Of a stretch of DNA of 64,000 nucleotides, positions 1 to 62,397 are shown one piece after another; position 1 is the stretch's first letter, and each line of letters opens with the position of its first letter. The stretch spans positions 1 to 64,000 of the forward strand of contig JAGVJP010000120.1 in NCBI GenBank assembly GCA_020051075.1, in the 5' to 3' direction. The notes beneath the pieces were generated by a model. It made no database searches. It saw only the letters and a program-made list of their open reading frames with translations, and was not told the origin of the DNA. The stretch comes from Parachlamydiales bacterium (GTDB taxonomy: Bacteria > Chlamydiota > Chlamydiia > Chlamydiales > Parachlamydiaceae). A program made the position numbers and the translations under genes.

Positions 1-87
1 CCTATCTTGTTTTTCCCTCTGCGCCTCCCCGTCTCTCCGTTAAATTGTCCTCCTTTGCGTCTCCGTGCCTTTGCGTCTTTGCGTTTA
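1..87 (-). repeat. 9-nt periodic repeat cluster (CGCAAAG / CGGAGAG types), cut by window edge
   Basis: Minus strand reads TTAAACGCAAAGACGCAAAGGCACGGAGACGCAAAG...TTAACGGAGAGACGGGGAGGCGCAGAG; 50-85 matches 54269-54304 at 35/36 nt. Confidence 0.8.
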
Positions 88-149
88 ATAGAAGCTAAGG
101 ACCATTTTGTACTCACAGGCGTCATATGGCGTGAATAGTGGCGAGTAAG

Positions 150-656
150 TTAGAATTCGATGAGTTCGGTCCAGAGAGGATGTCTCCAACAAGCGATCAC
201 CTCATCGTTGCTCTTGACCTCAGCGAGATAAGTTAAGATCCCTCCCGTTTTGAAATAGTCTTCGTTGACGAGTTCGTAAAGATAAGAGCCTCCCACGAAG
301 AGTTTGCAGTTCGTGTCGATTGGCATCGTCAACTCTTCCTTTTCATTGTTACGAAAACGTATTGCCAGATGCAGCGTTAGAGGGAGTCCGCTCACTTCAG
401 ACGCTCTGAATTTCCATTGTACCAAGAGACGCTGTCCGATTGTCGGATGATCTAGTTGCGGATCAGGTGTCAGGACATGGTAGCTTGCAAGGCTTTCTTT
501 GGTGATAAATTGCGTTTGAACTTCGAGGTGATGCATCATACAGCTGCTGAGCATGAGGAGATGGATGACACCAAGCAGAGGGATAAAGAAAGAGAAATAA
601 CGAGACATATTTACATTCACTCGATGAGAGTAGGGACTTTTTACAACGTTTTCCAC
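150..656 (-). CDS. Hypothetical, probable lipoprotein
   Basis: Hydrophobic stretch ending LMLSSC (lipobox-like); follows DAHP synthase by 3 nt; true start may be downstream. Confidence 0.6.
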   Translation of the reverse strand: MENVVKSPYSHRVNVNMSRYFSFFIPLLGVIHLLMLSSCMMHHLEVQTQFITKESLASYHVLTPDPQLDHPTIGQRLLVQWKFRASEVSGLPLTLHLAIRFRNNEKEELTMPIDTNCKLFVGGSYLYELVNEDYFKTGGILTYLAEVKSNDEVIACWRHPLWTELIEF

Positions 657-659
657 AGA

Positions 660-1787
660 TTAAACAATGCCGCAGATGTCGATGGCTTCAGCAGCGGCAC
701 ATTGCTGCTGCTGTTGAAGGGTTACAGCCGCCCATTCGATCAGATGTGCAGTGGAATGCCAATCTAAGCAGCTATCTGTGATAGACACACCGTATTTGAG
801 CTGCGATACGTCAGTCGGGTGCATCTGTTTGCCGCTATGTAGGTGGCTCTCCAGCATGACGCCTCTGATCGCTGTATTTCCTTCTACGATCTGATTGATC
901 ACAGACTGAAAAACAGCTGGCTGTTTCTCAAATTTCTTTCCTGAATTCTGGTGAGAGCAGTCGATTAATAAACGAGCAGGGAGGCCGACGTGTTCTAAAC
1001 GGTTGATGAGGTGGGCGACTGATCCAGGATCATAATTCGGTCCAGATTCCCCTCCTCTTAGGACAACATGAGCATCATGATTGCCGGAAGTCTTCTTGAT
1101 GATCGGCTTGCCTTGAGGGCACAGTCCCATGTAGCGGTGTGGATGTGAGGCGGCTAAAGCCCCATTGACCGCAGCGGAGACATTGCCTGCGATCCCATTT
1201 TTAAATCCGATTGGCATTTCCAATGCTGAAGCAAGCTGTCGATGTGGCTGAGAAGAAGATGTTCTGGCACCAATCGATCCCCAGGTAATCAGGTCGTCAT
1301 AATAATAAGCAGAGATAGGATCTAGAAATTCTGTTGCGGTGGGGACTTCCATCGCCGCTAATTCGAGAAGGAGCTCTCGGGTCCACTCGATGCCTTGAGG
1401 GATGTTGTGCGAGCCATCGAGCAGAGGGTCGTAGAGAAATCCTTTCCATCCAGCAACAGAGCGCGATTTCTCAAAATAGGTGCGCATCACCAAAAAAAAC
1501 TGAGAAGAAACCGATGCGGCAAAGTCATGCAGGCGAGAGGCGTATTCTCTTGTTGAAATCTTGTCGTGGATAGAGCAGGGACCGACAATTAAAAGAAGAC
1601 GAGGATCGCTTCGGTTGAGGATGGCGCGAACGGTGTCTCGGCTTTTGTCGATAAATTGATGTTGCTTGAGGGATGGCCTTTGACGCGCTTTGTACTCTTC
1701 ATATGGGGGGAGATATTCCATAAGGTCCTGTGCTAAAAACTGAATTCTTTTGAACCGATGAACGGATACATTTTCTGATCGTAGCAT
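660..1787 (-). CDS. 3-deoxy-7-phosphoheptulonate (DAHP) synthase, class I alpha (AroF/G/H type)
   Basis: IVGPCSIHD, RTYFEK, IGART, GFKNG, DCSHQNS, YGVSITDSC motifs. Confidence 0.92.
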   Translation of the reverse strand: MLRSENVSVHRFKRIQFLAQDLMEYLPPYEEYKARQRPSLKQHQFIDKSRDTVRAILNRSDPRLLLIVGPCSIHDKISTREYASRLHDFAASVSSQFFLVMRTYFEKSRSVAGWKGFLYDPLLDGSHNIPQGIEWTRELLLELAAMEVPTATEFLDPISAYYYDDLITWGSIGARTSSSQPHRQLASALEMPIGFKNGIAGNVSAAVNGALAASHPHRYMGLCPQGKPIIKKTSGNHDAHVVLRGGESGPNYDPGSVAHLINRLEHVGLPARLLIDCSHQNSGKKFEKQPAVFQSVINQIVEGNTAIRGVMLESHLHSGKQMHPTDVSQLKYGVSITDSCLDWHSTAHLIEWAAVTLQQQQQCAAAEAIDICGIV

Positions 1788-2339
1788 ACCGTCATATTTA
1801 GGGAAATGTCTAATCAGAATGCCAAGTTGGCTTCTCTATCTTTTTTGTTTTTAATAGGTAATGTTAGTTATGTAAAATTTATTTTAATAAAAGAATCATG
1901 TGCATATACTGAAACTTCGATTGTACATTTTGCTCACAGAATATTTTTTTGTTCTAGAGTTCATATCAATACACTTAGCCAATCCATTGATCAAATGTTG
2001 TATCGATAAAGAGGTTCAGAGGAGTCCCTGAGAGAAAACCAGAGATTCCTTTACATGATCATCGTCGTTTGGGGGATGGATTTGTTACGTCTTTATGGGC
2101 TTATACGGGATATAAAGTGTTAGTCGAGATGACAGTTGAATCAGAAAAAGAAAGCAACAATAGTGAATGGAACACTGGAGCAAGTCTTGGAGTTGGGAGT
2201 TGGCAATTAGGCGCTTCTTTTGATCGATTGACAAGTAAGTTACACTCTAGAGTGGTTTCTAACATTACCCTTCATCGTGATTCTTTCGGAAATTCTTCTG
2301 TCGATCACATTACTATGCAATTGAGAACGTTAGAAGAAG

Positions 2340-3326: not shown

Positions 3327-3420
3327 AAGAATAAAGATGAGATCTAAAACATTTTGCTGAACGGATAGGCATCAAAGAAAGTTGATAATAACGATGACCT
3401 CTCTAAATTTTGGAGACTCC

Positions 3421-3537
3421 AAGCGACGTCGTCTCTCATTTCAAAAAAGTAACGCTGCTAGAGCCATTTCTTACCATCCCTCTTATCCTTCCCATCCTGT
3501 CAATTTTTACAGGATAGGAAAGATAAGGCAGGATAGG
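3421..3537 (+). repeat. 111-bp dispersed element, copy 1, ending in the CATCCTGTCAATTTTTACAGGAT hairpin and CAGGATA units
   Basis: 3421-3531 equals 36926-37036 with 5 mismatches. Confidence 0.9.
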
Positions 3538-3559
3538 TTGTTATTCAGGGGTTAATGGC

Positions 3560-3687
3560 TTGACGAAGTTATGAAAAAAGCCAAATAATGTAAGAAACTT
3601 ACGAAAAATCATAAGTTTCTTGCAGAAAATAAAGAGAATAGCTAAAATTATGTTAGATACTTACGGAAATCGTAAGTTTTAAACATA
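3560..3687 (+). promoter_or_regulatory. abiE promoter with two inverted-repeat operators
   Basis: TTGACG 3560 / AATAAT 3584; IR1 3589-3604 with 3609-3624 (14/16); IR2 3649-3665 with 3671-3687 (14/17); shared ACTTACG core. Confidence 0.7.
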
Positions 3688-39670: not shown

Positions 39671-39675
39671 GCGCG

Positions 39676-44444: not shown

Positions 44445-44910
44445 CGCTCTGGGTGCTGGAAAGCATCCAAACATGTTTTTCATGAGCCCTTAATCGTTGT
44501 ATCAGAAGATCCGCTGTTCCTTCATCGCCAAGTTTTGAGGCCAGGTCGATAATTTCTCTCAGATAACGGATCATTGATTCATGCCCATCCAGCAGCTCTT
44601 TAGTCATCTGGGGAGCATGTAATAGGGCCGAAGATTCTTTGATCGAGGTCATCTCGAGGAATTGCTTAAGGCTGCCGGGAGCCTGTTCTCCTAACATCCT
44701 GATTCGCTCAGCAATTTCATCAATGGCTTCAGCGAGTTCTTCATATTGTTTTTCGAAAAATAGATGTAAGGAATAGAAGCGAGGATCGATGATGTTCCAA
44801 TGAAAATTTTGTGTTTTCGTGTAAAGGATATAAGTATCAGCCAGAATTAAATTTAACTTGTGAGCGATCTGCTTTCTCACACTTTCTTCAAGTCCTATAC
44901 GTGTATTCAT
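44437..44910 (-). CDS. dps: DNA starvation/stationary phase protection protein Dps
   Basis: KTQNFHWN, LHLFFEKQY, DEIAERI, EKHVWML. Confidence 0.93.
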   Translation of the reverse strand: MNTRIGLEESVRKQIAHKLNLILADTYILYTKTQNFHWNIIDPRFYSLHLFFEKQYEELAEAIDEIAERIRMLGEQAPGSLKQFLEMTSIKESSALLHAPQMTKELLDGHESMIRYLREIIDLASKLGDEGTADLLIQRLRAHEKHVWMLSSTQSAI

Positions 44911-45041
44911 GACATGCTCCATTCCATGCGTTATTGAAACTATCCACACTCATCCCATTTTTTAACGCAAAGGAGCTAAGACCTCCAACTACGCTAAGGA
45001 CCATCCTGTATTCACAGATGTATGCAATCTCATTAATTTTT

Positions 45042-45608
45042 TTATTGCGGTGGTTGTTGATGAGGTGCTGCCGCTTGTTCTTCAGCTTCGTCATTGATTC
45101 CTTGAGTGAAAAATCCACCTTCAGCAATATCTGTCAGATTCTCATCAGCTGCACTTTCTTCATCTAAACTGAGCTGAAGGCTGTCGGCTATCTCGTCAAA
45201 ATCAATTTTATCATTAATGCCAGCTCCTTGAAGATGGCGTGCAAGCGCTCGAGCAGATCCGTAACTTGTCATTTCATAATGTTCAATTTTTTGGCAGAGG
45301 ATAATCAGGGAAACATCTTTTATCGCAGGCGATGTCTCTTTTTTAAGTTCTCCGTCAATCGCATTCAATAGATCTTGAACCACGATGCAGCTTTTGCCAG
45401 TCGGGTTTTCATTAAGCGACTTGAATATTTGCTTTAACCGCTGGAGTTGATTCTTGGTTTCATCAAGATGTTCTGACAATGCGGTTTTAAGCTTGTGGTG
45501 TGAGACAGACCCGATAACTTTAGGCATGTTGTCAATGATCAACGTTTCATCGCTGAATAGGTCTCTTAACAAGTCTAAGAATACGTCGTATAAAGAAATC
45601 TTCTCCAT
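45042..45608 (-). CDS. YciE/YciF (DUF892) ferritin-like protein
   Basis: HLDETKNQLQRL, QKIEHYE..SYGS, LDEE..AD..LT. Confidence 0.85.
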   Translation of the reverse strand: MEKISLYDVFLDLLRDLFSDETLIIDNMPKVIGSVSHHKLKTALSEHLDETKNQLQRLKQIFKSLNENPTGKSCIVVQDLLNAIDGELKKETSPAIKDVSLIILCQKIEHYEMTSYGSARALARHLQGAGINDKIDFDEIADSLQLSLDEESAADENLTDIAEGGFFTQGINDEAEEQAAAPHQQPPQ

Positions 45609-45621
45609 AATTAACCTCCAT

Positions 45622-47652: not shown

Positions 47653-47781
47653 GGAACTCCCGGTGTCTATACCAGCATGCAGGTATAACTGCAATCTTGC
47701 TCGTTTGTCATTTTTCTGCAATATTTTTTTGCCAATCATAGAAAGTGTATATTAATGTAATATGTTAAAACTATTAATAGT

Positions 47782-47811
47782 TTGATAAATATTTTTTGTT
47801 GTTAGTATAAT
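47782..47811 (+). promoter_or_regulatory. Sigma66-type promoter about 290 nt upstream of the CesT-family gene
   Basis: TTGATA-N18-TATAAT. Confidence 0.55.
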
Positions 47812-47813
47812 GG

Positions 47814-48082
47814 GATGAGAAGAGCTGTAAGTTGCTGGACCACCCTGTAAGGAATTGGTGAAAAAAAGCATTTACTTTTAAAATGAATTCGCTCATCTTG
47901 GGTTTGATAAAAAATTACGCTTGCCAGCGCGACGTTGAGTAAGAGTGGTAAGTTCTTAGAGATATCTACATCTGATGAGCGACCCATTGCTGAGATCTAC
48001 TTAAGGTGAAACTGTCTCAAGCGACGTGGAAGAAAATCAAAGTAACAAATTTGAGATAACACTCTAGTTTTACGTGTTGTCT
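47814..48082 (+). ncRNA. Candidate structured RNA or long 5' leader
   Basis: Two consecutive imperfect rods (47814-47897, 47903-48041) and a hairpin 48054-48082, found by eye. Confidence 0.4.
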
Positions 48083-48098
48083 TTGTAGGAGGTTTATT

Positions 48099-48605
48099 AT
48101 GTCACTCGAAAATGCAAAAGAAAATTTAAAGGAATTTGGAAAGGAACTAGGTCTTGAAGGACTAGAATTTGATGAAAATAACACCTGTATTCTAGGTATC
48201 GATGATGAGTTTTCTCTTCATTTGACCTATGAGCCAAATTCCAAACGTTTATACCTTTATTCTCCTCTCTTAGATGGTTTGCCAAGAGATGATAAAACTC
48301 GTCTTCGACTTTACGAACGATTACTCGAAGGATCGATGCTCGGTGGTCAAATGGCTGGCGGCGGTGTCGGTGTTGCAGTCAAAGAAGAATTGATCTTGAT
48401 CCACTGCACGATTGATATGGAGCATGCTCTATCATCTGCTCTCAGAGCTTTTGCTCCTCTTTATGTCGAAACTGTCGAAAAATGGCGTAAAATTTGCTCT
48501 GAAGTCTCTGAAGGTCGCGATGAAGGTGCTCAAACAGGCGGTCCTCGACCTCTTCCTCAATCGCTTCAAGGCGGTCAACCAGGCCAAGGCTTTATTCGAC
48601 CATAA
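48099..48605 (+). CDS. CesT-family type III secretion chaperone (chlamydial Slc1/CT043-like)
   Basis: FDENNTCIL, SLHLTYE, LLEGSMLGGQMAGGGVG; between glgX and ssb. Confidence 0.88.
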   Translation: MSLENAKENLKEFGKELGLEGLEFDENNTCILGIDDEFSLHLTYEPNSKRLYLYSPLLDGLPRDDKTRLRLYERLLEGSMLGGQMAGGGVGVAVKEELILIHCTIDMEHALSSALRAFAPLYVETVEKWRKICSEVSEGRDEGAQTGGPRPLPQSLQGGQPGQGFIRP

Positions 48606-48660
48606 TCCAGCCGGGAACGACATCACTGTTACTGCCGAAATTGCCGCCTTCCCAGTATAG

Positions 48661-48930
48661 ATTAACAGGATAGGCAAGATCGCTTCGCGGCAAGATAGGC
48701 AGGATAGTGAATAACTTAATACCTCTTCATTCTTCTCATCATCTTCCCCCATCCTGTCAATTTTACAGGATGGGGAGGATATGGAAGATAGGGCAGGATA
48801 ACGAATCATTTAATGCCTCTCCATCCTTCTCATCTTCCCCATCCTGTCAATTTAAGGTTGGCTTGAAGTTTCCTATCATCTTGCTTATCCTGCCGCTTGC
48901 GATCCTGCTTATCCTGTTTTTTGCTTATCC
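48661..48930. repeat. Composite inverted CAGGATA-type element
   Basis: Variant core 48674-48697, CATCCTGTCAATTTTACAGGAT hairpin near 48750-48772, inverted core 48886-48908. Confidence 0.9.
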
Positions 48931-50421
48931 GTGTAGGGGAATTCGATAAGCTGGAACAACCGCTTCTTGAATCCACTCGGGTTTGATATGATAGTTTGTT
49001 TCACGCCGCTGATTGAATAGCTCGCGATCTTCGTCTTGGAAGATGTTGTGCTCTTTAGAGGGGCTTGTCGTTACAGATACTGCGGTTGTCTCCCGAAATT
49101 TATGCAATAGTTTGGCTACAGACTTCAGATCTTCATCATGATATTCTGATTGATAGCCAGGGTAGTAAACAAAGCCAAATCGTTCGTAATATTTTTTGCC
49201 AATGATTGGGATGATACTGTGTTTCGTTTCGGTGTCGTTCTTGACCGTTAAAACGCCATCATAGGCTGAAAAAGATTTTTGCATGATATCTGCAATCAAT
49301 CTGTCGAAAAAAGCAGTGATCTCAATCGTGTCATCCCTTCCCAGAAGCAAAATGTCAAAATTGGGGTGTTTCTCTATATCTCTATTTTTTGCATGAATAG
49401 GAGAGTTCCAAGGACCAAAATAATAGCTTAAATTTGGATAAGCCTCTAATTTTTCACGCATCGAAGGAGTGTTCATGACCAGGTCATTTTCATCGAGTGT
49501 GACCAAAAAATGATAAGCGACAGTGCCGGAAAAGTTTCTGTAATACTGATTGAGAGCATGGAATAACCCTCCGGGGTTAGATCGGCTGGAAATTTGAATC
49601 AACAATTTTGGAGGCTGATTCTCAAGATGGTTCCACATATAGCTGTAGGCTCCATAGACAAATTTGTCTTCTTCAAATCTTTTTGAATCGGGTTTTGTCG
49701 ATAGTCCCTGTGGATTTAGATAATAGAGGCAATAAACTCCAGGAACTTTTTTGAATTTAGAGCCCTTGCTGACAGCACGATTCCACATCTCAAGATCCCC
49801 GGAAGAATAAAATTGTTCCGAAAAATATCCGGCTTTGCTATGTAGCGACTTCCGCCACATTGGCGCTGGTCCCCCCAAACAAAGATTCATGAGTTGTGGA
49901 GAAAATTCCGCGATATTGTTGTATAATGTGGCAGAGTGATTTTCGTAGGTTTCATAAGGTTTGTTGGTTATCCAGAAATCTGAATAGACTAAATCGACTG
50001 TTGGATCTTCATCCAGAGCTTTTGCATGCGTCTCCAAGCAGATAGGATTTCTCTGGTCATCAATATTGGCGTTCGTGATGTATTCTGCTTTGGCTTTTTT
50101 GATTCCTAAATTCCACACCCCATAGATTCCTGGATCTTTTTCCAACCGCTCATAGCTGATATTTGGATATTTCTCCAGATAAGGTTTGATGATCGGTTCC
50201 TCGTTGCCTGGGGAAGCGGCATTGATAAGAATGAGTTCGCATTCATCGAAGATTGTTTGTTTGACGATATTTGAGAGAAACAGTTCCATGTAATCATCCC
50301 CTTTGTAAATTGAGGTGATGATGGCTACGCGTGGTTTTTTTGGGATTGTTTGATGATCTGATGAAAAGCTGAAATTTGTGAGTATGATAAAAAGTAGAAG
50401 GAACTTAGAAAAGCATTCCAT
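48925..50421 (-). CDS. Two-domain glycosyltransferase (GT2 plus second GT-A-like domain) with N-terminal signal/anchor
   Basis: IITSIYKG, WNLGI, NANIDD, GDLEMW; second domain with LLGRDD; start placed at ATG 50421. Confidence 0.85.
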   Translation of the reverse strand: MECFSKFLLLFIILTNFSFSSDHQTIPKKPRVAIITSIYKGDDYMELFLSNIVKQTIFDECELILINAASPGNEEPIIKPYLEKYPNISYERLEKDPGIYGVWNLGIKKAKAEYITNANIDDQRNPICLETHAKALDEDPTVDLVYSDFWITNKPYETYENHSATLYNNIAEFSPQLMNLCLGGPAPMWRKSLHSKAGYFSEQFYSSGDLEMWNRAVSKGSKFKKVPGVYCLYYLNPQGLSTKPDSKRFEEDKFVYGAYSYMWNHLENQPPKLLIQISSRSNPGGLFHALNQYYRNFSGTVAYHFLVTLDENDLVMNTPSMREKLEAYPNLSYYFGPWNSPIHAKNRDIEKHPNFDILLLGRDDTIEITAFFDRLIADIMQKSFSAYDGVLTVKNDTETKHSIIPIIGKKYYERFGFVYYPGYQSEYHDEDLKSVAKLLHKFRETTAVSVTTSPSKEHNIFQDEDRELFNQRRETNYHIKPEWIQEAVVPAYRIPLHG

Positions 50422-50450
50422 GAAATTAGATCCTTTTAATGGGGTGGTGA

Positions 50451-50616
50451 TATACCGGCATCTAGTTGAAATTGCCCATCTGGACTGCGCGAAAGCTCCC
50501 GGGGTTGAACGATCGTAAATCACCCAATATTAAGTCAATATGGGGTGATTTACGATCGTTCAACCCCGGGGCTTTGGCGCAGTCCAGATGGGCAATTTCA
50601 ACTAGATGCCGGTATA
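50451..50616. mobile_element. 166-bp near-perfect palindrome, MITE-like
   Basis: About 80-bp arms with 2 mismatches and 1 bulge, 5-nt loop, TATA at both ends. Confidence 0.7.
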
Positions 50617-50836
50617 CAGAATAATCACATAAAGGATTAAAAAAAAGTTGTTTCTAACGGTTACGTAATGGGTAAAATTCTCTCTCAATCCATGATTTAT
50701 TCACTTTCACATAATTTTTTTGGGTGGTAAAATTCCTTTTGTGTTATTGTTTTTTGTCTATCTCTATTTCTAACCTGAGTGACAGGTGTCTAAGAGATCT
50801 GAATGATTTGAAACCTTATGGAGCAAGGAGAGTGTT

Positions 50837-51373
50837 ATGTTTATTGTTCATCTAGCTGGGCACCTTGGAAAAGATCCAGAAACACGATATACCCCAAATG
50901 GACAGAAGTTAACCACCTTCACAATGGCTGTTAATCAGCGCAAGGGAAAGGAAGACGTGACAATATGGGTCCGTGTTGTCATCTGGGGAGATCACTTGGA
51001 TAGAATTCTCTCGTACCTTAAGAAAGGAAGCGGTGTGATTGTCATTGGGAAAATGAATCCGCCTCAAAGCTATACAGATAAGGAGGGACGTACTCAAATC
51101 TCTCTCGAAGTGACTGCGGAAATGGTCGAATTTAGTCCATTTGGACGCTCAGACCGTAATGCAGATGGGCAAGGTCAAACAGCGAGTGCAAACGGATCCT
51201 CTGCAAAGAGCAACACATCATCTGCGTACGAAACTCCACATAACTCTTCTTATGAAGATGGACAATACCAAGCTGCTGGGGCGAATTATGGAGGAAGAGC
51301 GACAACTTCTTATGGCTCGCAAATGGGGCAAGGCTCAGGTCAGGCAATTGACGATGATGTCATCCCATTTTAA
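50837..51373 (+). CDS. ssb: Single-stranded DNA-binding protein
   Basis: GHLGKDPETRYTPNG, acidic DDDVIPF tail. Confidence 0.96.
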   Translation: MFIVHLAGHLGKDPETRYTPNGQKLTTFTMAVNQRKGKEDVTIWVRVVIWGDHLDRILSYLKKGSGVIVIGKMNPPQSYTDKEGRTQISLEVTAEMVEFSPFGRSDRNADGQGQTASANGSSAKSNTSSAYETPHNSSYEDGQYQAAGANYGGRATTSYGSQMGQGSGQAIDDDVIPF

Positions 51374-51388
51374 CACATAGAGGCGGTC

Positions 51389-52957
51389 ATGGAGTTTCTT
51401 CAATATTACAGCTTAAGTAAGCGACACAACGCTGATGCCCTTGTCATCCCTTTTTGGAAGGGGGATAAAGGCGCTGAGGCTGCGACCTCTATAGATAAAG
51501 CGCTCAAACGTGTGGTTGCTTCTCCTCTATCGTCAGGTGATTTTAAAGGAAAAGAAGGGGAAACTCTGCTGATCTACGCAGATGAGGGCTTTGAAAAACG
51601 GCTGATTTTGTTAGGGCTGGGAGTCCAAGAGAAAGTTTCTGTGGAGGTGATCCGACGGGCCTATGGGAGTCTAACCAAGACAGCTTTGCAGAAGAAGCTC
51701 TCTGATTTAAACGTTGTTCTTCCAGATTGCAAAGCGCTTGCGGGAGCAGACCTTTTCAGAGGAGTTTCTGAAGGACTGCTCCTTCCTAATTATCTCTACA
51801 AAAAATTCAAACATCAACAACCAGATGAAGAAAATGGCCAGACCCTCGTCCGAAAAGTAGCGTTGATCGGAGAAGATCCTTCTGCTTTAGAAGCAGCTCA
51901 AAAAGCAGCAGCGATTGTTGATGGAGTCTATTATGCCAGAGATTTAGTTAATGGCAATGCTGATGAAATCACTCCCCAGCATCTCGTTCAATGTGCGAAT
52001 GGGCTATCGCTTGAACAGCCGTCGCTTAAAGTCACCGCCCTCAACAAAAAAGAGATTGAAAAAGCGAAGCTCGGCCTTCTGTTGGCAGTGAATCGTGGAT
52101 CGGCTCTCGATCCAGCGTTAATTATCATTGAATATAAGGGGAACCCTAAGTCAGACGACCGGACGGTCATTGTAGGAAAAGGGGTGACTTATGATACTGG
52201 AGGGTTGAATTTGAAGCCCACCGGGTCAATGGAAACAATGAAATGCGATATGGCTGGCGCTGCAGCTTGCATTGGTACCATGTTGGCAATGAGTCACCTG
52301 AAGCTTAAGGTCAATGTCATTGCTGTGATTCCTTCGACGGAGAACGGGATTGATGCAAAGAGTTTTAAACCCGGCGACGTCTACACAAGCTTTTTAGGAA
52401 AGACTGTTGAAGTGATGAATACCGATGCCGAAGGGAGGCTCATTTTAGCTGATGGTTTGGCCTACGCAATCAAGAAGCTGAATCCTTCCCGCATCCTTGA
52501 TATTGCCACTTTGACAGGTGCCATAGACATTGCTTTAGGTTCTGAAGCGACGGGTTTAATGAGCACAGACGATGATTTGGCGCAAGCTTTGGTTAACGCT
52601 GGCGCAGCCACTTCAGAGCGGTTGTGGCGGATGCCATTGTTTGAAGAGTATTCAGAAAGACTTAAATCTGATATCGCCGATCTTAAGAATTGGAATGGCC
52701 GCCCAGGCGGTGCCAATGTTGCAGCAGCATTTTTAAAAGAATTTGTCGATTCTTCCGTTCCTTGGGCTCATCTTGATATTGCTTCTACAGCCTATCTATC
52801 TGAGCCGAAAAAGTATTTGCCAAAATATGCGACTGGTGTTGGAGTCCGTCTTCTCATCGAGTTCTTTGAACAGCTTGAAAAGCGGGTAAGGGACAAGGGA
52901 CCAAAGGGACCTAAAAAGGGACAAAACAGGATAAGCAAAAGGGACAAAACAGGATAG
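51389..52957 (+). CDS. pepA: Leucyl aminopeptidase (M17)
   Basis: GKGVTYDTGG, MKCDMAG, NTDAEGRL, WAHLDIA. Confidence 0.96.
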   Translation: MEFLQYYSLSKRHNADALVIPFWKGDKGAEAATSIDKALKRVVASPLSSGDFKGKEGETLLIYADEGFEKRLILLGLGVQEKVSVEVIRRAYGSLTKTALQKKLSDLNVVLPDCKALAGADLFRGVSEGLLLPNYLYKKFKHQQPDEENGQTLVRKVALIGEDPSALEAAQKAAAIVDGVYYARDLVNGNADEITPQHLVQCANGLSLEQPSLKVTALNKKEIEKAKLGLLLAVNRGSALDPALIIIEYKGNPKSDDRTVIVGKGVTYDTGGLNLKPTGSMETMKCDMAGAAACIGTMLAMSHLKLKVNVIAVIPSTENGIDAKSFKPGDVYTSFLGKTVEVMNTDAEGRLILADGLAYAIKKLNPSRILDIATLTGAIDIALGSEATGLMSTDDDLAQALVNAGAATSERLWRMPLFEEYSERLKSDIADLKNWNGRPGGANVAAAFLKEFVDSSVPWAHLDIASTAYLSEPKKYLPKYATGVGVRLLIEFFEQLEKRVRDKGPKGPKKGQNRISKRDKTG

Positions 52958-53101
52958 GCAGGATCGCAAGCGGCAGGATAAGCAGGATAGGGAAGATAAA
53001 TTGGATGTTTTTTTTCTCTTAATTTTGCCTGAATTTTTTATCTTCCCGATCCTGCTTATCCTGCCGCTTGCGATCCTGCCTATCCTGTTGTGTCCCTTTT
53101 G
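52889..53101. repeat. Inverted GGGAC/CAGGATA-type element overlapping the pepA 3' end
   Basis: Cores at 52958-52980 (+) and 53057-53079 (-). Confidence 0.92.
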
Positions 53102-53121
53102 ACTATCATTGAGGGGAAGTT

Positions 53122-54207
53122 ATGGATAATCGGAATGAGATGACCGGGGCAACTCTTTTTTTTCGGGATAAGATTTCTGTTGCCATCCTTGGTGCGACGG
53201 GCTGTGTCGGGCAGAAATTTGTTCAGATGCTCAGTTCGCATCCTTGGTTCGATATCAAAGCCTTATGCGCTTCAGAGCGATCTGTTGGGAAACAGTATGG
53301 AGATGCTGTGCAATGGCGCCATTCCACTCCTCTTCCAGAAGAGATTGCTCGGCTTGTTGTGCAGCCCTGCCAGCCTGTGCTTCCCTGCTCCGTGGTTTTT
53401 TCCGGACTAGATTCCCACGTGGCAGGGGGGATAGAAACGACTTTCGCAGAGCAGGGGAGCCTTGTCATCTCAAACGCCTCTAACCATCGTATGGATCCTT
53501 ATGTCCCACTTGTTGTGGGCGAGGTCAATCCCGATCATTTTGCTTTGATGGACAGGCAGCCTTTTTCTTCTGGCAGAATAGTGACAAACCCGAACTGTTC
53601 AGTGACGGGGTTAGTATTGGCCCTGAAGCCATTGCAGGAGAGATTTGGTTTGCAAGCTGTTCAGGTGACTACTTTACAGTCTCTTTCTGGCGCTGGCTAT
53701 CCAGGTGTGGCAAGCTTGGATGTCTGTGATAATGTGATACCCTATATTGAAGGGGAAGAGGCTAAGATCGAACGGGAACCACTGAAGATTTTAGGCTCGT
53801 TTAGAGAAGAAGGGATTGAAAATGCTGATATTGCGATAAGTGCTCAATGTAACCGGGTTGCCGTGTCTGAAGGGCATCTTGCTTGCGTCTCTGTTAAATT
53901 CCACACAAAGCCATCGATAGAAGAACTGATTGAGGCTTGGGTAACCTTCAGAGGAGAGCCTCAAGAGCTGCAGCTGCCGACAGCCCCTTTTCAACCTATC
54001 CACTATTTCGAACAGCCCTATTATCCACAGCCAAGGCTGCACCGCTCATTAGATAAGGGAATGGCAGTGAGCATCGGACATTTACGCCGCTGCAAGGTGA
54101 TGGATTATAAGTTTACCTTACTTTCTCATAATACTGTGAGGGGCGCTGTGGGAGCTGCGCTGCTTAATGCAGAACTTCTATTAGCTAGAGGGAAAATATT
54201 TTGGTAA
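53122..54207 (+). CDS. asd: Aspartate-semialdehyde dehydrogenase
   Basis: LGATGCVGQ, SNAS, NPNCS, QSLSGAGYPG, HNTVRGA. Confidence 0.95.
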   Translation: MDNRNEMTGATLFFRDKISVAILGATGCVGQKFVQMLSSHPWFDIKALCASERSVGKQYGDAVQWRHSTPLPEEIARLVVQPCQPVLPCSVVFSGLDSHVAGGIETTFAEQGSLVISNASNHRMDPYVPLVVGEVNPDHFALMDRQPFSSGRIVTNPNCSVTGLVLALKPLQERFGLQAVQVTTLQSLSGAGYPGVASLDVCDNVIPYIEGEEAKIEREPLKILGSFREEGIENADIAISAQCNRVAVSEGHLACVSVKFHTKPSIEELIEAWVTFRGEPQELQLPTAPFQPIHYFEQPYYPQPRLHRSLDKGMAVSIGHLRRCKVMDYKFTLLSHNTVRGAVGAALLNAELLLARGKIFW

Positions 54208-54244
54208 CTATTCACATCCCCCCATTAACTGTACTAGGACGTCT

Positions 54245-54306
54245 CTTTTGCTTATCCTGTTATATTCGCTCCTTTGCGTCTCCGTGCCTTTGCTTCTTTG
54301 CGTTAA
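54245..54306 (-). repeat. CGCAAAG-type periodic element
   Basis: 35/36 identity with 50-85. Confidence 0.85.
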
Positions 54307-54419
54307 AAAGGGGTGGATACTTGAATAGTTGCATATTTTGGTAATTCAGTGGTGAGAATGGGGAAAGGTATGCTATCATTTTCCCCTTATCAACCATTGA
54401 TCAAGATGGGGAGAATATC

Positions 54420-55424
54420 ATGCCGCTGCCCTGTATTCGAGATTGGACCACTGCAGAAATTCAAGAAATTTATCAATCCCCTTTATTAGAACTGATTCAT
54501 CGAGCTGGCGTCGTTCATCGCGAGCACTTTAACCCTGCTGAAGTGCAGCTATGCCACCTGATTTCAATCAAAACTGGAGGGTGTCCCGAAGATTGCAGAT
54601 ATTGCGCACAATCTTCACGTTATCAGACTTCTGTCGATGCACAACCTATGATGCAGGTAGAAGAAGTGTTGAATCTAGCTCAGGAGGCAGCCAAACAGGG
54701 AGCTTCTCGCATTTGTCTAGGTGCAGCATGGAGAGAGGTGAGAGATAGTCCTCAATTTGATCGTGTGTTAGAGATGATTAAATCGATCACTGCCATGGGT
54801 GTCGAAGTGTGCTGTTGTTTAGGCATGTTGAATCCTCGCCAAGCAGATAAATTAGCTGAGGCCGGTTTGTATGCTTATAATCACAATTTGGACACCTCGC
54901 CGGAATATTATCCAACCATTATAACCAGCCGAACCTACGCAGACCGTTTAAAAACACTCGATGCCGTCGAAAATTCAGGCATAAGTGTTTGCTGCGGAGG
55001 TATCATCGGCATGGGTGAGAGTATTGAAGATAGAGTACGGCTGTTGCAGGTGTTGGCAAATCGAAAGAAACATCCAGAGTCTGTACCGATCAATCTGCTG
55101 ATTGCAATTCCAGGAACCCCTCTTCAAGACCAGGCTCCTATTTCTGTCTGGGAATTCATCAGAATGATTGCGACAACACGCATTGTTTTACCTGCAAGTA
55201 TGGTGAGATTATCTGCAGGGCGTCTTCATTTGACTTTGGAACAACAAGCGTTATGTTTTTTGGCTGGAGCTAATTCCATTTTTTATGGAGAGAAGCTGCT
55301 GACAGTAGAGAACTCCGACATAGATGCAGACCAGTATATGCTAGAATTATTTGGATTAAAACCGCGCCCCCCGTTTATAAAACCATCTGGACAGATAGAT
55401 ACATGCACCTCAATGACTTCATGA
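54420..55424 (+). CDS. bioB: Biotin synthase
   Basis: [29 protein letters not shown]. Confidence 0.98.
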
Positions 55425-56545
55425 CAAAGCGTTTATCAGAAAGGGAGCTTAGAGGGAATCTCCGTCATTTACGGACGAGGGAAGGTTGTATCGATTTCAC
55501 ATCAAATGATTACTTAGGACTGGCTCGAAGCGGCCAGCTGCACAGTGCGATAACAGAAAAAATTACTGCCCTTCAAACGTGCGTCCATGGTTCAACCGGT
55601 TCTCGCCTTCTTACAGGGCACTCGGTGTTGTTTGAACAAGTGGAGAAGAAAATCGCTCATTTTCATCGCTCTGAAGGGGCTTTGCTGTATAACTCTGGAT
55701 ATACTGCTAGCATAGGGCTCCTTGATGCACTGTTACAGCCCGGCGATTGCGTCGTCCATGACGTTCATATCCATGCCTCTTTTCAAGATGGGATTCGGTT
55801 ATCTAAAGCAAGAAAAATCCCTTTTAGGCATAATGACACACAACATCTTGAGAACCGGCTTAAAACGTTAGATCGAGAGCAAAGAGTTTTTGTTTGCGTG
55901 GAATCAGTCTACTCTCTGGACGGGTCAATCGCTCCACTAGAAGCAATTCTTAAGTTATGCTTAAAGCATCAAGCTCAGCTGGTTGTCGATGAAGCTCATG
56001 CCATTGGAATACTAGGAACGCATGGAGAAGGGTTGGTGTCTCAATTAAATTTAGAGTCTCTTGTGTGTGCCAGAGTATGCACTTATGGAAAAGCCTTTGG
56101 TGTCCATGGAGCGGCTATTGTTGGCAGTAATCTTCTCAGGAAATATTTAATTAATTTCTCCAGACCGTTCTGCTATACAACTGCCATGCCGATTCATAAT
56201 GTCATTGCCATCGATTGTGCCTATGACATCATCACAAATGCAGAAGTTGAACGAGAGCGCTTGATCTCCCTCATTGCCTATTTCCATGCTTTAGTAGAAG
56301 GCAGCAACATTCCAGTTGTTAAGAGTTCTACGCCAATTCAAGGGGTTTTGATCCCAGGCAATGAAAGAGTCAAAGCCGTTTCGGTAAGGCTGGCAGCATC
56401 GGGCTTTGACGTCAGAGCAGTGATGAGTCCTACGGTTAAGCGTGGCAGTGAAATATTACGTTTATGTCTTCACTCGTTCAATCGACCTGAAGATGTCGAA
56501 CGGCTGGTTCGTGAGATCGAAAGGGCTATCAAAGAGGTTTCATGA
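55403..56545 (+). CDS. bioF: 8-amino-7-oxononanoate synthase
   Basis: SNDYLGL, GSRLLTG, VDEAH, TYGKA. Confidence 0.93.
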
Positions 56546-57164
56546 GATATATCGTCGCTGGAATTGGGACTGAAGTGGGGAAAACCGTTGTTTCCGCTAT
56601 CTTGACTCAAGCGTTAAACGCTGACTATTGGAAGCCGATCCAAGCAGGTTGTTGCGAAGCAACCGATTCAATGATTGTTCAGGATCTCATTCGACCCATA
56701 GATGTTGTCTGCCATCCTGAAGCTTATCAATTTCTAGAACCAGTTTCGCCTCATCTGGCGGCACAGTTAGAAGGGATAGAAATCAATCCGGAAAGCATTA
56801 GGCTGCCGCAAACAGAAAAACCGTTGGTGATCGAAATGGCGGGGGGCTCTTATCTCCTCTGAACGGCCATCAGACTCAATGTGAACTATTTTCAAAATGG
56901 GATTGCCAGTGGCTATTGGTCTCCAAACATTATTTAGGAAGCATTAATCACACTCTTTTATCGTTAGAGTATATGAAGCAAAAGAAACTTCCATTAATGG
57001 GGATTATTTTTAATGGTGATGCCAATCAATCTTCTGAACAATTCATTCTGGACTACGCTCAAGTTCCTTGTCTTGGGAGGCTTAGACAAGAGCAAACAAT
57101 CAATGCAGCGACGATCGCAAAGTATTCAAATGAGTGGAGGAAAACCTTTTTATGCAGAATCTAA
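56542..57164 (+). pseudogene. bioD: Dethiobiotin synthase, split by a one-base frameshift in a G6 run
   Basis: TEVGKT, WKPIQAG, SPHLAA, EMAGG; adding one G at 56841-56846 gives GGLLSPLN...YLGSINHTLLS. Confidence 0.9.
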
Positions 57165-58426
57165 GTGAAAGAGATAGAGCCATCATATGGCATCCGTTTA
57201 CACAGCATTTAACCGATCCTTGCCCTATTCCCATTGTGAAGGCTCAAGGGGCCTATTTGTTTTCTGAAGACGGGGAGAAATATATCGATGCCATTTCCTC
57301 CTGGTGGACAAATGTTCATGGCCATGCTCACCCGCATATTGTGGAGATGATCACCAAACAAGCTCAAACATTGGAACATGTTATGTTTGCAGATTTTACG
57401 CATGAACCTGCCATTCTATTAGCCGAACGTCTGCTACCTATTTTGCCGCGAGGGCTATCCCGTTTTTTTTATTCGGATAATGGTTCAACAGCTGTTGAAA
57501 TCGCTCTAAAAATTGCTTTCCAATACTCTTATAACAACTCTCCAGAAAAACCTAAACGAAAAATCATCGCTTTCAGGGGAGCTTACCATGGAGACACGTT
57601 TGGGGCAATGTCAGCAGCAGTCCGATCCACTCACAACCGCCCTTTTTGGCCTTTTCTCTTCGATGTCGACTTCATCGACCCTCCTTATCATGGAAAAGAA
57701 GATGTCTCTTTGAAACAGCTTGAGGAGCTAATAGGCAAAGATGATACCGCATGCTTTATCTTTGAACCCCTCGTTCAAGGATTCAGCGGTATGGTTATGC
57801 ACAGTGCATCGGGGTTGAGTCAACTCATGAAAAAATGTCGCGACCACCACATTTTGCTTATTGCAGATGAGGTGATGACAGGATTTGGACGGACAGGTCC
57901 ATTGTTTGCCTCCGATCAGCTGAGCGAGCCACCAGATATGATCTGTTTGTCAAAGAGTTTGACTGGAGGAGCGCTTCCTCTTGCTTTGACAGTATGCACA
58001 GAAGAGCTTTATGAAGGTTTTCTCTCAGAAGAGAGGAGCCGCGCCTTCTTGTGGGGACACACTTATACTGGCAACCCTCTTGGCTGTGCAGCAGCTCTAG
58101 CGAGTTTAGATCTATTACTCACTCCTCAATGCCACAGACAGCGTGTGACGATTGAAGCAGCTCATCAATCATTTAAACAGCGGTGGGGATCTCAGTGGAA
58201 ACGTTGCGACGTGTTGGGAACGATATTGGCATTGGAATATTTTGATCCTTCCGATACCCGCTATTTCAGTAAAATGCGGGATCGTTTAAGCCGTCATTTC
58301 TTGAATCATCGCATTGTTATTCGTCCATTTGGCAATGTTGTCCATGTGATGCCTCCTTATTGTATTGAGGAAGATGATTTGAACGCTGTTTATCAAAGTT
58401 TATTAGAGAGTTTAACCTGCTTATGA
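57152..58426 (+). CDS. bioA: DAPA aminotransferase
   Basis: WHPFTQ, SSWW, DNGSTAVE, YHGDTFG, DEVMTGFGRTG. Confidence 0.96.
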   Translation: MQNLSERDRAIIWHPFTQHLTDPCPIPIVKAQGAYLFSEDGEKYIDAISSWWTNVHGHAHPHIVEMITKQAQTLEHVMFADFTHEPAILLAERLLPILPRGLSRFFYSDNGSTAVEIALKIAFQYSYNNSPEKPKRKIIAFRGAYHGDTFGAMSAAVRSTHNRPFWPFLFDVDFIDPPYHGKEDVSLKQLEELIGKDDTACFIFEPLVQGFSGMVMHSASGLSQLMKKCRDHHILLIADEVMTGFGRTGPLFASDQLSEPPDMICLSKSLTGGALPLALTVCTEELYEGFLSEERSRAFLWGHTYTGNPLGCAAALASLDLLLTPQCHRQRVTIEAAHQSFKQRWGSQWKRCDVLGTILALEYFDPSDTRYFSKMRDRLSRHFLNHRIVIRPFGNVVHVMPPYCIEEDDLNAVYQSLLESLTCL

Positions 58427-59070
58427 TCGAGCAACCTTGCGTTTCGTTAGAAGATGAGTGGAAAGAGATATTATCACAAGTCGTCGGTGATCCATTGACT
58501 CATGCAAAGTGGTTAAATACCCTTTCCTACCTGGAAAATTGTGGAGCAAGAAAGATTGCAGCCTGCGAGCACCCGACTAAAGTCAAGACTGAGATGCTCA
58601 AACACGCTGCCGAAGAGTTTCGTCATGCCTATTATCTCAAAAGTCAAATTAAAAAAGTGATCGACCAAGAGCTCGAAGATTATTCTCTAGCAACAATGCT
58701 AGGAGGGGTTTCCGCTCTGCATTACCTCCAGGCGCTTGATGTCTTGACTTGTCAACATCTGAAGAGAGAGGAACAGATGTCACCGCTGCAGATTAGAGAG
58801 GCTGCTTATATTCTCGTGACTTATGCTGTTGAACTGCGGGCGTCTGAACTGTATCCTCTCTATCACGAGATCCTCAAGGCAGCCAAATGCAAGGTCGCTG
58901 TCAAATCGATTCTTTTAGAAGAAGAGGAGCATCTCGCAGAGATGAAAAGAGAGTTAGACGGCATTCCAGGAGGTGATTCCTTGATCAAAGTTGTCTGCAG
59001 CATCGAAAGCCAATTATGCAAGACGTTGATTCACTCTCTGAGAGCATCAATATCCACAAACACAGGATAA
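58423..59070 (+). CDS. Ferritin-like diiron protein in the biotin operon (BioE-like)
   Basis: WLNTLSYLE, HAAEEFRH, YAVELRA, EEEEHL; ATGA overlap with bioA. Confidence 0.75.
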   Translation: MIEQPCVSLEDEWKEILSQVVGDPLTHAKWLNTLSYLENCGARKIAACEHPTKVKTEMLKHAAEEFRHAYYLKSQIKKVIDQELEDYSLATMLGGVSALHYLQALDVLTCQHLKREEQMSPLQIREAAYILVTYAVELRASELYPLYHEILKAAKCKVAVKSILLEEEEHLAEMKRELDGIPGGDSLIKVVCSIESQLCKTLIHSLRASISTNTG

Positions 59071-59250
59071 GTAGCAAAAACAGGATAGGCAGGATCGCAA
59101 GCGGCAGGATAAACAGGATAGGAAAGATAATGATGATAAGATGAGATAGGTTTGTCTCTATATTTTTTTAAGCCGTTTGCTTAAATTTTCCTATCATCAT
59201 GCTTATCCTGCCGCTTGCGATCCTGTCTATCCTGTTTGTCCCTTTTGTCT
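59062..59250. repeat. Inverted CAGGATA-type element between convergent genes
   Basis: Cores at 59089-59111 (+) and 59204-59225 (-). Confidence 0.92.
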
Positions 59251-60434: not shown

Positions 60435-60446
60435 GCTTAACCTTTC

Positions 60447-60965
60447 TTATTGTTGTTCCATTGCTGCTTTCATTAGATCTGTGATCTCTTTTATTTCAGC
60501 CGGTGTTATTGGATTTTTGAAATTGGCAACGTACATTTTGAACATGAATTTAAGTGTGGAATCATCCCCTAAATGTCGAGGAATATAATGAAAATGAAGA
60601 TGAGGGACTGTTTGTCCCACCTCAAGTCCGTTTTTCTGAAGGAGGAGGTATGAAGCTGTGCCAAAGACTGTTTCAGCTGCCTGATTGACCTTTTTGATAG
60701 TATTCCCGATATGGATCATTTCATCCTCTGATAGCATCTCAAAGCGTTCAACATGTCTTTTAGGGATAATGAGGCTGTGTCCTGGGAAAACGGGCTTGTG
60801 CGTATAAAGGGCGATGACGAGCTCATCTTCATAAAACTTCTGGAGATTGAGTTGATGGCCGTCACAAAATGGGCAAGGCCCATCCATTGATTTTGTTAAG
60901 GGAAATAAGGTTATTCCTATTACAACGGCCAGCAGTAAAATGAAGCAAACTAATTTTTTTGACAT
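60447..60965 (-). CDS. HIT family hydrolase with N-terminal hydrophobic anchor
   Basis: CPFC, PGHSLIIPKRH, GQTVPHLHFH. Confidence 0.9.
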   Translation of the reverse strand: MSKKLVCFILLLAVVIGITLFPLTKSMDGPCPFCDGHQLNLQKFYEDELVIALYTHKPVFPGHSLIIPKRHVERFEMLSEDEMIHIGNTIKKVNQAAETVFGTASYLLLQKNGLEVGQTVPHLHFHYIPRHLGDDSTLKFMFKMYVANFKNPITPAEIKEITDLMKAAMEQQ

Positions 60966-62203
60966 TATTTAGGCTTGTACATCTGCAACAGAAGGGCTGC
61001 ACGGTCTATTGTTTCTTTTCCATAAAATTCTCCTCCAAAAGAGAGCCTCGATTCAAGAGTCTTATGCCTCCATGACTCAGGCAATATGATGTATCCATGC
61101 GCATCGTTGGTCAGTCCAAAGATGGAGACGTGGGAATAACCCATTTTGGAGCCTAATGCTTTGAGGAAATGATCGTAGATGCAGCTCAATTCTCCAGGGA
61201 TCGTAATGAAAGCATGCAGCTGGTTAAAGATGAGAATGTTTATTTCACTAGAATAGTGCTGAAGAGGGAGGCGAAGTCCAAACGGGGTCTCTTGGGGCTG
61301 AAAGGAATAGGAGATTTTATCTGTGATCATTTCAAGATTCTCATCAACTTCTGTCGCATCCCAAATTTCCCTGATCGATGCCGCCAATTGCCTGCCAATC
61401 GCTTCACATGCAATCAAGCGGTCTTCTCCCGGAGAGATTTTTGGAATCACATCCCCTTGAGCCCCATTGAAATAGATGGGTTGCATCGTTGAACCTAACA
61501 ACGCTTGGAGTTCATTCCTGGCGTACCCGACAAAATCAGAGGAAAAGAGAGTATTACTGCTATCTAATGCTGTCGGATGAAGAGGATAATTAAAAAGAAG
61601 AGCTAGTGGTTCCCCGTCAAGCGTTGTCACCTTGATGATCGATACCTCAGACGAAGGGGGGATTTCAAGAGGCCAGAGGCCACGGTAGTGGCTTAAATTC
61701 GATGTTTTGCCATACCCGATGCCGATTTTAGCTTGCACTTGTGCTTGGCTTGCTTGAATAATGGCTTGAGCAGTTTGTTCTTCATAAAACCTGGTGATTT
61801 GGGGGTTATAAGGTCCCGCTAAGCTTTCGCCCATCACAGGGATATCTAAATGAGCGCCTCCTCCCGAATGGGTGTGAGAAGAGGCGATATAGATCTCACA
61901 ATCTTCAAGCCCTGGGTGGGAGTGAACGTGCCGATTGATGTTCTGCACCATTTCATAAGTAAACCCTAAATGGTCTACACTGCAGAGAATAATGTTTTTT
62001 TCGCCGTTGTTAATGAAAAGTGCAAGAGCAGCCAAAGGGTCGTGCGTCCCCTCCATCCCCTTTCCTTGACGTTCAGAATATCCCGCAGAGGGAGTTCCAG
62101 CTGGAGGTGTGATTTCAGTTTTTCCTATTCCTACATGAACGGACCCATTTACAAGGATAGGGGCAATGATGAAAAATAAGAACAAAAGCCGATGAAAGAT
62201 CAT
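60965..62203 (-). CDS. Neutral/alkaline ceramidase-family protein
   Basis: EITP..GY, SHTHSG, NYPLHPT, SSDFVG, GAQGD, PGE; signal peptide. Confidence 0.8.
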   Translation of the reverse strand: MIFHRLLFLFFIIAPILVNGSVHVGIGKTEITPPAGTPSAGYSERQGKGMEGTHDPLAALALFINNGEKNIILCSVDHLGFTYEMVQNINRHVHSHPGLEDCEIYIASSHTHSGGGAHLDIPVMGESLAGPYNPQITRFYEEQTAQAIIQASQAQVQAKIGIGYGKTSNLSHYRGLWPLEIPPSSEVSIIKVTTLDGEPLALLFNYPLHPTALDSSNTLFSSDFVGYARNELQALLGSTMQPIYFNGAQGDVIPKISPGEDRLIACEAIGRQLAASIREIWDATEVDENLEMITDKISYSFQPQETPFGLRLPLQHYSSEINILIFNQLHAFITIPGELSCIYDHFLKALGSKMGYSHVSIFGLTNDAHGYIILPESWRHKTLESRLSFGGEFYGKETIDRAALLLQMYKPK

Positions 62204-62304
62204 GTTGATTGAGACCTGTAAGCTAAGAATAAGAAGAATAGAATATAACGATTGTCAATAGGAGTCAACGGTTTGTGTGGGTAACATCTAAAGTTGGTAG
62301 GTGC

Positions 62305-62397
62305 AATTAAAACACAGAGACACAGAGAGCACAGAGAGAGACAATTGATTGTTCTCAATGTTTACCCTCTGTGTTCTCTGTGCCTCTGTGTTTCTAT
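62305..62397. repeat. CACAGAG-type inverted periodic element
   Basis: AAACACAGAGACACAGAGAGCACAGAG ... CTCTGTGTTCTCTGTGCCTCTGTGTTT. Confidence 0.92.

Follow-up and report, generated by a model that had tools for sequence, protein, structure and literature searches.

The closest described counterparts of the elements reported here are the REP/REPIN elements moved by RAYT (REP-associated tyrosine transposase). As outlined by Bertels and Rainey (2011; PMC3116915), hundreds of extragenic inverted-repeat hairpins occur per genome in several sequence groups, each tied to a single-copy gene flanked by the same repeats, and the gene-less copies are presumed to be moved in trans. A second counterpart is the intervening sequence of the 23S rRNA gene, in which a terminal-inverted-repeat stem likewise encloses a small gene or none; the account for Coxiella burnetii (PMC4990558) also places variable-number direct heptameric repeats beside an S23p/four-helix-bundle frame. 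The stretch analysed here (the window) comprises the first 64 kb (64,000 nucleotides) of contig C79 in the Parachlamydiales bacterium assembly GCA_020051075.1, which totals 2.94 Mb in 133 contigs at 43% G+C. Its genes are ordinary housekeeping genes, and its intergenic regions carry arrays of short words that mostly form hairpins. For one gene, the closest homologues with a name belong to Parachlamydiaceae and other environmental chlamydiae. At a probability of about 60%, these arrays are the arms of non-autonomous palindromic hairpin elements of a class named here after its gene-bearing form, the GxxExxY cassette, the window copies being gene-less. The GxxExxY family (PF13366/TIGR04256) is listed with unknown function in a superfamily survey of 2012 (PMC3424549).

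Set against REPINs and RAYTs as presented in that source, the hairpins differ in two respects. A 137-aa PD-(D/E)XK protein is found where the REPIN system has an HUH Y1 transposase, and arrays of 7-9-nt words extending up to ~100 nt replace the paired 20-40-nt REPs (PMC3116915). Compared with the 23S intervening sequence as set out in PMC4990558, the window elements lie between protein genes and are mostly gene-less, and cutting by RNase III has been shown only for the intervening sequence; the assembly contains no 23S rRNA gene. Outside the window, a four-helix-bundle gene on contig C93 (C93:41875-42186) has the build of an intervening sequence as described for Coxiella, with inverted terminal arms around a PF05635 frame. 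Its arms are 64 nt long, 95% complementary and made of CCGAGC words ending GTTAAC. Miniature inverted-repeat elements derived from insertion sequences are short, non-coding, multi-copy palindromes that reside in spacers and break assemblies, as do the elements here. In the latter, nevertheless, the whole arm is complementary and internally periodic, rather than just a short terminal repeat, and no transposase-carrying element with matching ends was found as a parent in a search that covered Y1 transposases only. Open-access full-text literature yielded no description of word-array arms around GxxExxY genes, and the AGGAT-family word CAGGATAGG appeared in such texts only within primers.

Arrays were counted genome-wide with four unit patterns, an array being defined as at least three unit hits with gaps of at most 17 nt, and a locally shuffled genome served as control. 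The genome (2.94 Mb) holds 699 arrays compared with 54 in the control; of these 699, 592 are situated mostly outside a proxy map of coding sequence, which spans 85% of the genome. CAGGATAGG occurs 484 times where ~18 occurrences are expected, more often than any other 9-mer of the genome; one 21-mer is present 66 times. Because each unit contains recurrent C and T, a purine-run detector failed to pick up most arrays. A strict self-similarity scan returned only 121 regions, with lag 9 leading outside genes (31/59), and was too insensitive for a census. A second over-represented word set, CGCTTCGCG / GATCGCTTCGCGAAGCGATC (387 and 244 copies), belongs largely to the core of the AGGAT-word arm, where it alternates with CGCAAGCGG on the opposite arm.

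A preliminary description of the window had reported arrays with a period of about 9 nt, a common TTAAC-like head and interchangeable unit sequences, usually in inverted arms. Arrays were present in all 13 intervals concerned. The period proved exact for one word family alone, since only AGGAT words are strictly spaced at 9 nt: same-strand AGGAT cores are 9 nt apart in 678 cases, whereas the neighbouring spacings from 5 to 12 nt account for 6-21 cases each. ACAGAG words follow one another at 8 nt (56) or 9 nt (33), GCAAAG words at 8 nt (80) and AGGGAC words at 7, 9, 12 or 15 nt. Each unit consists of a fixed 5-6-nt core and 2-3 variable purines as its last bases, and arrays stand behind an A/T-rich ...AAC end. 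Searched as TT[AGT]A{0,3}C immediately 5' of the first unit, the head precedes 127/505 AGGAT, 25/77 ACAGAG-type and 35/59 GCAAAG arrays, compared with 7/1851, 2/154 and 0/111 internal units of these families and a background of 1.9%. The head is thus enriched in three families but is not constant: GGGAC arrays lack it (0/57), and only AAC is common to the other three, the longer forms being family-specific (aAAC, GAAAC and TTAAAC). At 3498-3512, 37003-37017 and 48760, the supposed heads 'TTGAC' and 'TTTAC' represent both sides of a single Y-arm/R-arm junction, GTCAATTTTTAC. The stacking of different unit types is real but mostly reflects one fixed composite arm, AGGAT-GGGAC-AGGAT.

Inverted arms form hairpins at 8 of the 13 window loci, where folding is much stronger than in dinucleotide shuffles (z -3.8 to -18), and 179/420 clusters genome-wide hold both orientations. 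The remaining five loci are single arms (1-90, 30670-30770, 31410-31532, 31915-32015 and 54240-54310). In hairpins the 5' arm is almost invariably the purine one (purine arm first in 111 clusters, second in 11). Stems comprise 40-100 pairs, are flanked by A-runs and T-runs, and may have unequal numbers of units in the two arms of one hairpin. Copies at unrelated loci form pairs up to 93-95% identical. Clusters occupy 103/323 convergent spacers (32%), 132/1077 tandem spacers (12%) and 54/371 divergent spacers (15%), at a median distance of 51 nt from a gene 3' end and 155 nt from a 5' end; 43/420 lie at contig ends.

The genome's one GxxExxY gene (C100:55356-55694; TIGR04256, 132.7 bits) is enclosed by two AGGAT-word arms in inverted orientation, whose CGCAAGCGG/CGCTTCGCGG core also occurs in the window hairpins. 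Only the two ~105-nt arms of this cassette recur, 250-330 times, while the gene and its leader are unique. As the AGGAT arms match those around the GxxExxY gene, the window arrays look like gene-less copies of a widespread mobile element. Neither GxxExxY (PF13366) nor four-helix-bundle (PF05635) genes were found on the window's contig, and all window copies are gene-less, in keeping with the earlier statement that the window has no GxxExxY gene. PF13366 matched twice in the genome, one match being weak and within a 523-aa frame; no cognate GxxExxY gene for the ACAGAG or GCAAAG words was found in the assembly. The C100 protein has 137 aa and is of the PD-(D/E)XK type (Cas4/RecB-like). Its predicted fold (pLDDT 87.8) best matches Cas4 SSO0001 and lambda exonuclease, residues D73 and E83-x-K85 are invariant across 30 sequences, and a sequence search of the PDB gave no matches. 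The family numbers at least 5715 proteins at E <= 1e-10, most homologues being on ~1-kb contigs.

A sample of 120 genomes from the phylum, 33 of them with a GxxExxY gene, provided 27 loci with enough flank; the genomes are related, so that the counts are non-independent. Inverted repeats bracket 15/27 loci, and 14 of these 15 are word arrays (9 ACAGAG-type, 2 AGGAT, 2 GCAAAG and 1 GCGGAG). Controls gave 5/150 for random small open reading frames and 0/45 for shifted intervals. Moreover, at least five CACAGAG tandems were found in 22/33 gene-bearing genomes versus 4/87 without the gene, and all five genomes with at least three AGGAT triplets were gene-bearing, related genomes entering both comparisons. 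The two proteins with AGGAT arms form one clade (support 99/96).

Loci of C100-protein relatives were taken from named genomes (Geobacteraceae, Acidobacteriota, Chloroflexota, Verrucomicrobiota, Spirochaetota and others); 62/74 are bracketed, compared with 2/134 shifted controls. The arms of this GAT subfamily contain at least two xGAT cores in 57/62 cases and ACAGAG in 0/62, and their cores are 9 nt apart in 85/146 cases. TAAC occurs in the first 22 nt of 20/62 left arms and 18/62 right arms at a background of 4%. One arm from Geobacter reads AATTAAC-AGGGATATT-CAGGATAAT-CAGGAT. Another subfamily, collected from metagenome contigs and counted without a shifted control, is bracketed at 55/75 loci by arms with GAG words at 8-9 nt; at least two C[AG]GAG cores are present in 28/55 and at least two xGAT cores in 0/55. 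The word family follows the GxxExxY subfamily across phyla: words and proteins form cognate pairs, and their sequences are not interchangeable. The preliminary description was therefore right to propose one architecture, but its interchangeable sequence gives way to words that track the protein subfamily, and the association with GxxExxY genes that it had mentioned for other phyla holds both there and in this genome. In sum, the earlier observation is partly confirmed and its interpretation partly supported.

An insertion system, one of the generating mechanisms suggested earlier, is the best reading of these data. The elements would spread by copy-and-paste into spacers, mostly just 3' of gene ends. 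The cognate nuclease may bind the iterated words, act at or near the AAC/GTT ends and mobilise gene-less copies in trans, while unit slippage would reshape the arms. Lacking a cognate gene in the assembly, the ACAGAG and GCAAAG families would be orphans or fossils. By analogy with 23S rRNA intervening sequences, the long stem would probably be cut or tolerated in transcripts. A wider proposal, put forward tentatively and at less than even odds, is that a large, so far undescribed class of bacterial mobile elements has GxxExxY proteins as its enzymes. Each subfamily would read its own 5-6-nt word (xxGAT or xxGAG) every 8-9 bp on inverted arms ending ...TAAC/GTTA..., and a Cas4-like nuclease and its DNA would together make up a simple, evolvable 'word code'. 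One gene might then maintain hundreds of gene-less hairpins, and the origin of rRNA intervening sequences might be explained. A defined DNA partner, with cognate words, fixed spacing and AAC ends, would give the very large GxxExxY family a function and would account for hundreds of intergenic, assembly-breaking hairpins per genome. In addition, it could connect these elements to the long-unexplained rRNA intervening sequences, and the protein-to-word specificity would offer a compact system for studying the co-evolution of DNA recognition.

Several observations weigh against a GxxExxY-driven element. Mobilisation by the nuclease is inferred, and neither a target-site duplication nor an exact empty site between close strains was recovered. 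No bracketing repeat was detected at 12/27, 12/74 and 20/75 GxxExxY loci in the three sets. Nothing in the centres of gene-less copies is shared with the gene-bearing copy, nor did any gene remnants turn up, which implies that the gene-less copies are not simple deletion derivatives. When arm labels as a whole were placed on the protein tree, nine changes were required compared with a shuffle mean of 9.8; the many rows in which no arm was detected kept the test from outperforming shuffles. In four genomes, CACAGAG arrays are numerous and GxxExxY matches absent. Finally, four-helix-bundle genes, which do not encode enzymes, are enclosed by the same kind of arms at 8/11 loci, and the enclosed gene may therefore be cargo. 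A screen for other cargo between far-apart arms gave 18 candidates. Those examined are ordinary or unknown genes, such as one for inositol monophosphatase, and no family match pointed to cargo; they were read as two separate elements around a normal gene.

The gene as mere cargo is the main rival to the GxxExxY-cassette interpretation. The arms would form a mobile or recombining module in their own right, set in motion by a host factor or another enzyme, with GxxExxY, four-helix-bundle and perhaps toxin-antitoxin genes as passengers in the loop, and words and proteins would match by co-inheritance of the cassette rather than by recognition. The four-helix-bundle loci and the genomes with arrays alone are accommodated by such a module, as are a YafQ/RelB pair between window arrays and the excess of gene-less copies, by hundreds, over a single gene. 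It is nevertheless judged unlikely. The split of words between the two subfamilies is complete both ways (0/62 and 0/55), the arrays at the toxin-antitoxin pair are in direct, not inverted, orientation, and the 5-6-nt core persists across phyla within otherwise variable units, as would be expected of a binding site. Less probable still are host-kept signals at the RNA level behind genes (two-way terminators, processing sites or mRNA stabilisers), for which spread would be secondary. The excess of clusters in convergent spacers and close to 3' ends, the A-runs and T-runs beside the stems, the very strong folding and the presence of some word hairpin at the junction of pepA and asd in several genera are all in line with this idea. 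The 54 clusters in divergent spacers are not, stems of 40-100 pairs go beyond any known need, and the bracketing of nuclease genes is left unexplained. In the region 39000-58999, none of 17 consensus terminator-like sites fell within an element (17.7 sites expected by chance), which agrees with the earlier view that these are not ordinary terminators. Stem mismatches, compared as a test for RNA-level selection, showed no clear G.U strand bias (39 G.T versus 29 A.C) and lend no support to the RNA element read by periodicity that had been offered as the other possible mechanism. Rfam gave no matches in the window at gathering thresholds.

Integron attC sites are imperfect palindromes of diverse sequence with AAC...GTT ends, read by shape by a tyrosine recombinase. 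Such ends border palindromes of diverse sequence here too, and toxin-antitoxin genes adjoin some arrays. An attC-like origin is, even so, very improbable: the best match to the integron integrase model TIGR02249 reaches 78 bits where the cut-off is 265, the elements are dispersed between housekeeping genes with no co-oriented cassette array, and in gene-bearing copies the gene is inside the palindrome, not beside it. Periodic words are not known as a feature of attC sites. In-place slippage of short repeats with local inverted duplication, and no movement between loci, would produce the unequal arms and the unit-level differences seen in a near relative (one 9-nt unit at 39565 and gaps at 52885-52888). 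As a sole cause it is already contradicted and scarcely to be entertained, given the 66-fold recurrence of one 21-mer, arms repeated 250-330 times, whole elements 93-95% identical at unrelated loci, and a 41-nt core 88-97% identical in four genera in which pepA is only 65-70% identical. The dismissal of microsatellite slippage in the preliminary description thus stands for the arrays as a whole but not for single units. Abundant extragenic palindromes that form hairpins are the defining look of REPINs as portrayed in PMC3116915. Movement by a RAYT is the least credible of these explanations: just one Y1 transposase gene matched strongly (C131:9638-10003, 150 bits), no word array lies within 500 nt of it, and its neighbour is a 373-aa frame, as in IS200/IS605. 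Of the gene families suggested earlier as possible neighbours, GxxExxY and four-helix-bundle genes do occur within arms but the Y1 transposase gene is unlinked to arrays. REPIN/RAYT, attC sites and plain terminators were each rejected on a defining test: the unlinked Y1 gene, the missing integrase and the 0/17 terminator-like sites, respectively.

Orthologous loci, whose comparison the preliminary description had proposed, are filled, empty or differently filled among relatives, and arms change by whole units. Between pepA and asd, the two genes are 4 nt apart in G011 (empty site), one ACAGGATAGGC unit is present in G004, and G005 and G009 carry hairpins of other words. Downstream of fabI, inspection by eye revealed no repeats in 11 of 13 relatives, a GCAAAG hairpin in one and a different repeat in another; the AGGAT-word hairpin was found in none of the 13. 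The different repeat (locus L228, in G004) consists of ~55-nt tandem units, each with a GGGCCGAAGGCCC hairpin and a TTTAACC start, and constitutes another repeat family. At the same site in G009 (locus L225), a frame starting MTHTYRNHHFHLIWSTKNRE follows a small G+C-rich hairpin and has the look of a Y1 transposase of the IS200/RAYT type; relatives may host a true REP/RAYT system beside word hairpins.

A near relative, ~93-95% identical, was followed in public sequencing runs, one of them an RNA run in which DNA may also be present; its share was at most 0.18 in every run and contigs break at repeats, so that presence or absence of the large hairpins is unreadable. Besides the unit missing at 39565 and the small gaps at 52885-52888, it lacks ~84 nt around 44950-45035; in four runs, 44923-45031 is replaced by 25 letters. 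It also skips 54215-54289 and differs inside 48781-48864, the inner part of a nested element.

The individual window loci, of which hairpins and composite elements carry no strand assignment, vary in build. The largest AGGAT-word hairpin (39350-39670; z -14.9 and -17.2) occupies the convergent-gene spacer downstream of fabI. Another with the CGCAAGCGG core (59062-59250; z -13.2 and -10.0) fills the convergent-gene spacer before dxr. At 52884-53107, a 224-nt hairpin with outer GGGAC and inner AGGAT words (71-nt arms, 94% complementary; z -16.5 and -18.4) contributes the final codons, stop included, of the leucyl aminopeptidase gene (pepA) and ends 15 nt before asd. The nested element at 48661-48930 (z -10.1 and -10.9) has outer AGGAT-word arms with the head TTAAC and two short inner hairpins. 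ACAGAG words form a compact hairpin at 62305-62397 (TTAAAAC-ACAGAG...CTCTGT-GTTTCTA; z -9.9 and -11.4) and a second at 17856-17961 (z -4.0 and -3.1), which has the head TTAAAAC and a GCAAAG-type fragment ending GCGTTAA inserted near the loop.

Two loci belong to a composite family, 'A2', whose ~255-nt members have terminal repeats of their own (GGCTATTTTCATAACTT...) and contain two short AGGAT-word hairpins. The partial element at 3400-3582 comprises the short hairpin CCCATCCT-GTCAATTTTTAC-AGGATAGG (3470-3537) and the right terminal repeat GACGAAGTTATGAAAAAAGCC (z -7.3 and -8.6). The left part of another lies at 36903-37036, with the terminal repeat GGCTATTTTCATAA and a short hairpin (z -3.8 and -6.7). 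Further copies include G000 C1:43889-44158 and C100:49114-49363. Two copies with unrelated flanks share 95% identity; a possible 8-nt direct repeat is present in one pair of flanks and absent from the other.

Among the single arms, that at the contig start (1-96, minus strand) has no fold of its own (z -0.9 and 0.0), and its partner arm, if any, is beyond the assembly break. On the minus strand it runs from TTAAAC-GCAAAG/ACGCAAAGG/CACGGAG words through TTTAAC-GGAGAG/GCGCAGAG words to one AAGATAGG unit. The AGGAT-word arm at 31921-32012 (minus strand), with the CGCAAGCGG core, is repeated 240-280 times and likewise has no fold of its own. The arm at 54245-54306 (minus strand) contains GCAAAG/CACGGAG words behind a TTTTTAAC head and does not fold. 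A short single GCAAAG unit with the same TTTTTAAC head and a GCTAAGGACCAT flank, at 44950-45035 (minus strand), had not been listed before.

The toxin-antitoxin pair, YafQ/RelE-type toxin and RelB-like antitoxin genes (30769-31306, minus strand), lies between arrays and outside any hairpin, as cargo or neighbour. To its left, an ACAGAG-word array followed by a short AGGAT-word Y/R junction (30673-30767, plus strand; weak fold) marks the left border of an inserted block, 30626-31587. To its right, a single arm (31413-31598, plus strand) has GCAGAG/GGAGAG words, then GGGAC words and then the conserved centre of the GGGAC element, with 79-83% identity over 123-124 nt to C100:88884-89006, C91:4354-4474 and C99:18586-18706. 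The ~960-nt block of arrays and toxin-antitoxin pair is flanked by a direct ~135-nt duplication of the queC 3' end (30490-30625 and 31588-31725; 93% identical over 133 nt). The second queC-end copy begins where the homology to the GGGAC-word element centre stops, and the two have a CATTCG.GAG stretch in common. The block looks like an insertion by illegitimate recombination.

Other features were noted in passing. In the genome at large, an A/T-rich ~110-nt module (…TATTTTTATTTGTTTATAAATAA…TTACTGAATATGA…; locus L015, G000 C4:25800-26950) recurs directly 3' of AGGAT-word arrays and 5' of small membrane-like frames, and may be a shared promoter or leader. An unrelated nested palindrome (50451-50616; 53-nt outer and 34-nt inner arms, 94-97% complementary) lies where a glycosyltransferase-like frame ends. 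The near relative has 102 letters in place of 50426-50667, and there are also shorter forms without the inner part; the palindrome probably represents another small mobile hairpin family. A FliO-like match at 34318-34758 is weak (44 bits, the cut-off being 55), and a CesT-type secretion chaperone is encoded at 48099-48605; flagellar-type genes are unusual in chlamydiae. Between bioF and bioA, a BioD-like frame (56542-56862) of only 106 aa matches positions 2-110 of a 166-position model and may be a truncated or split gene.

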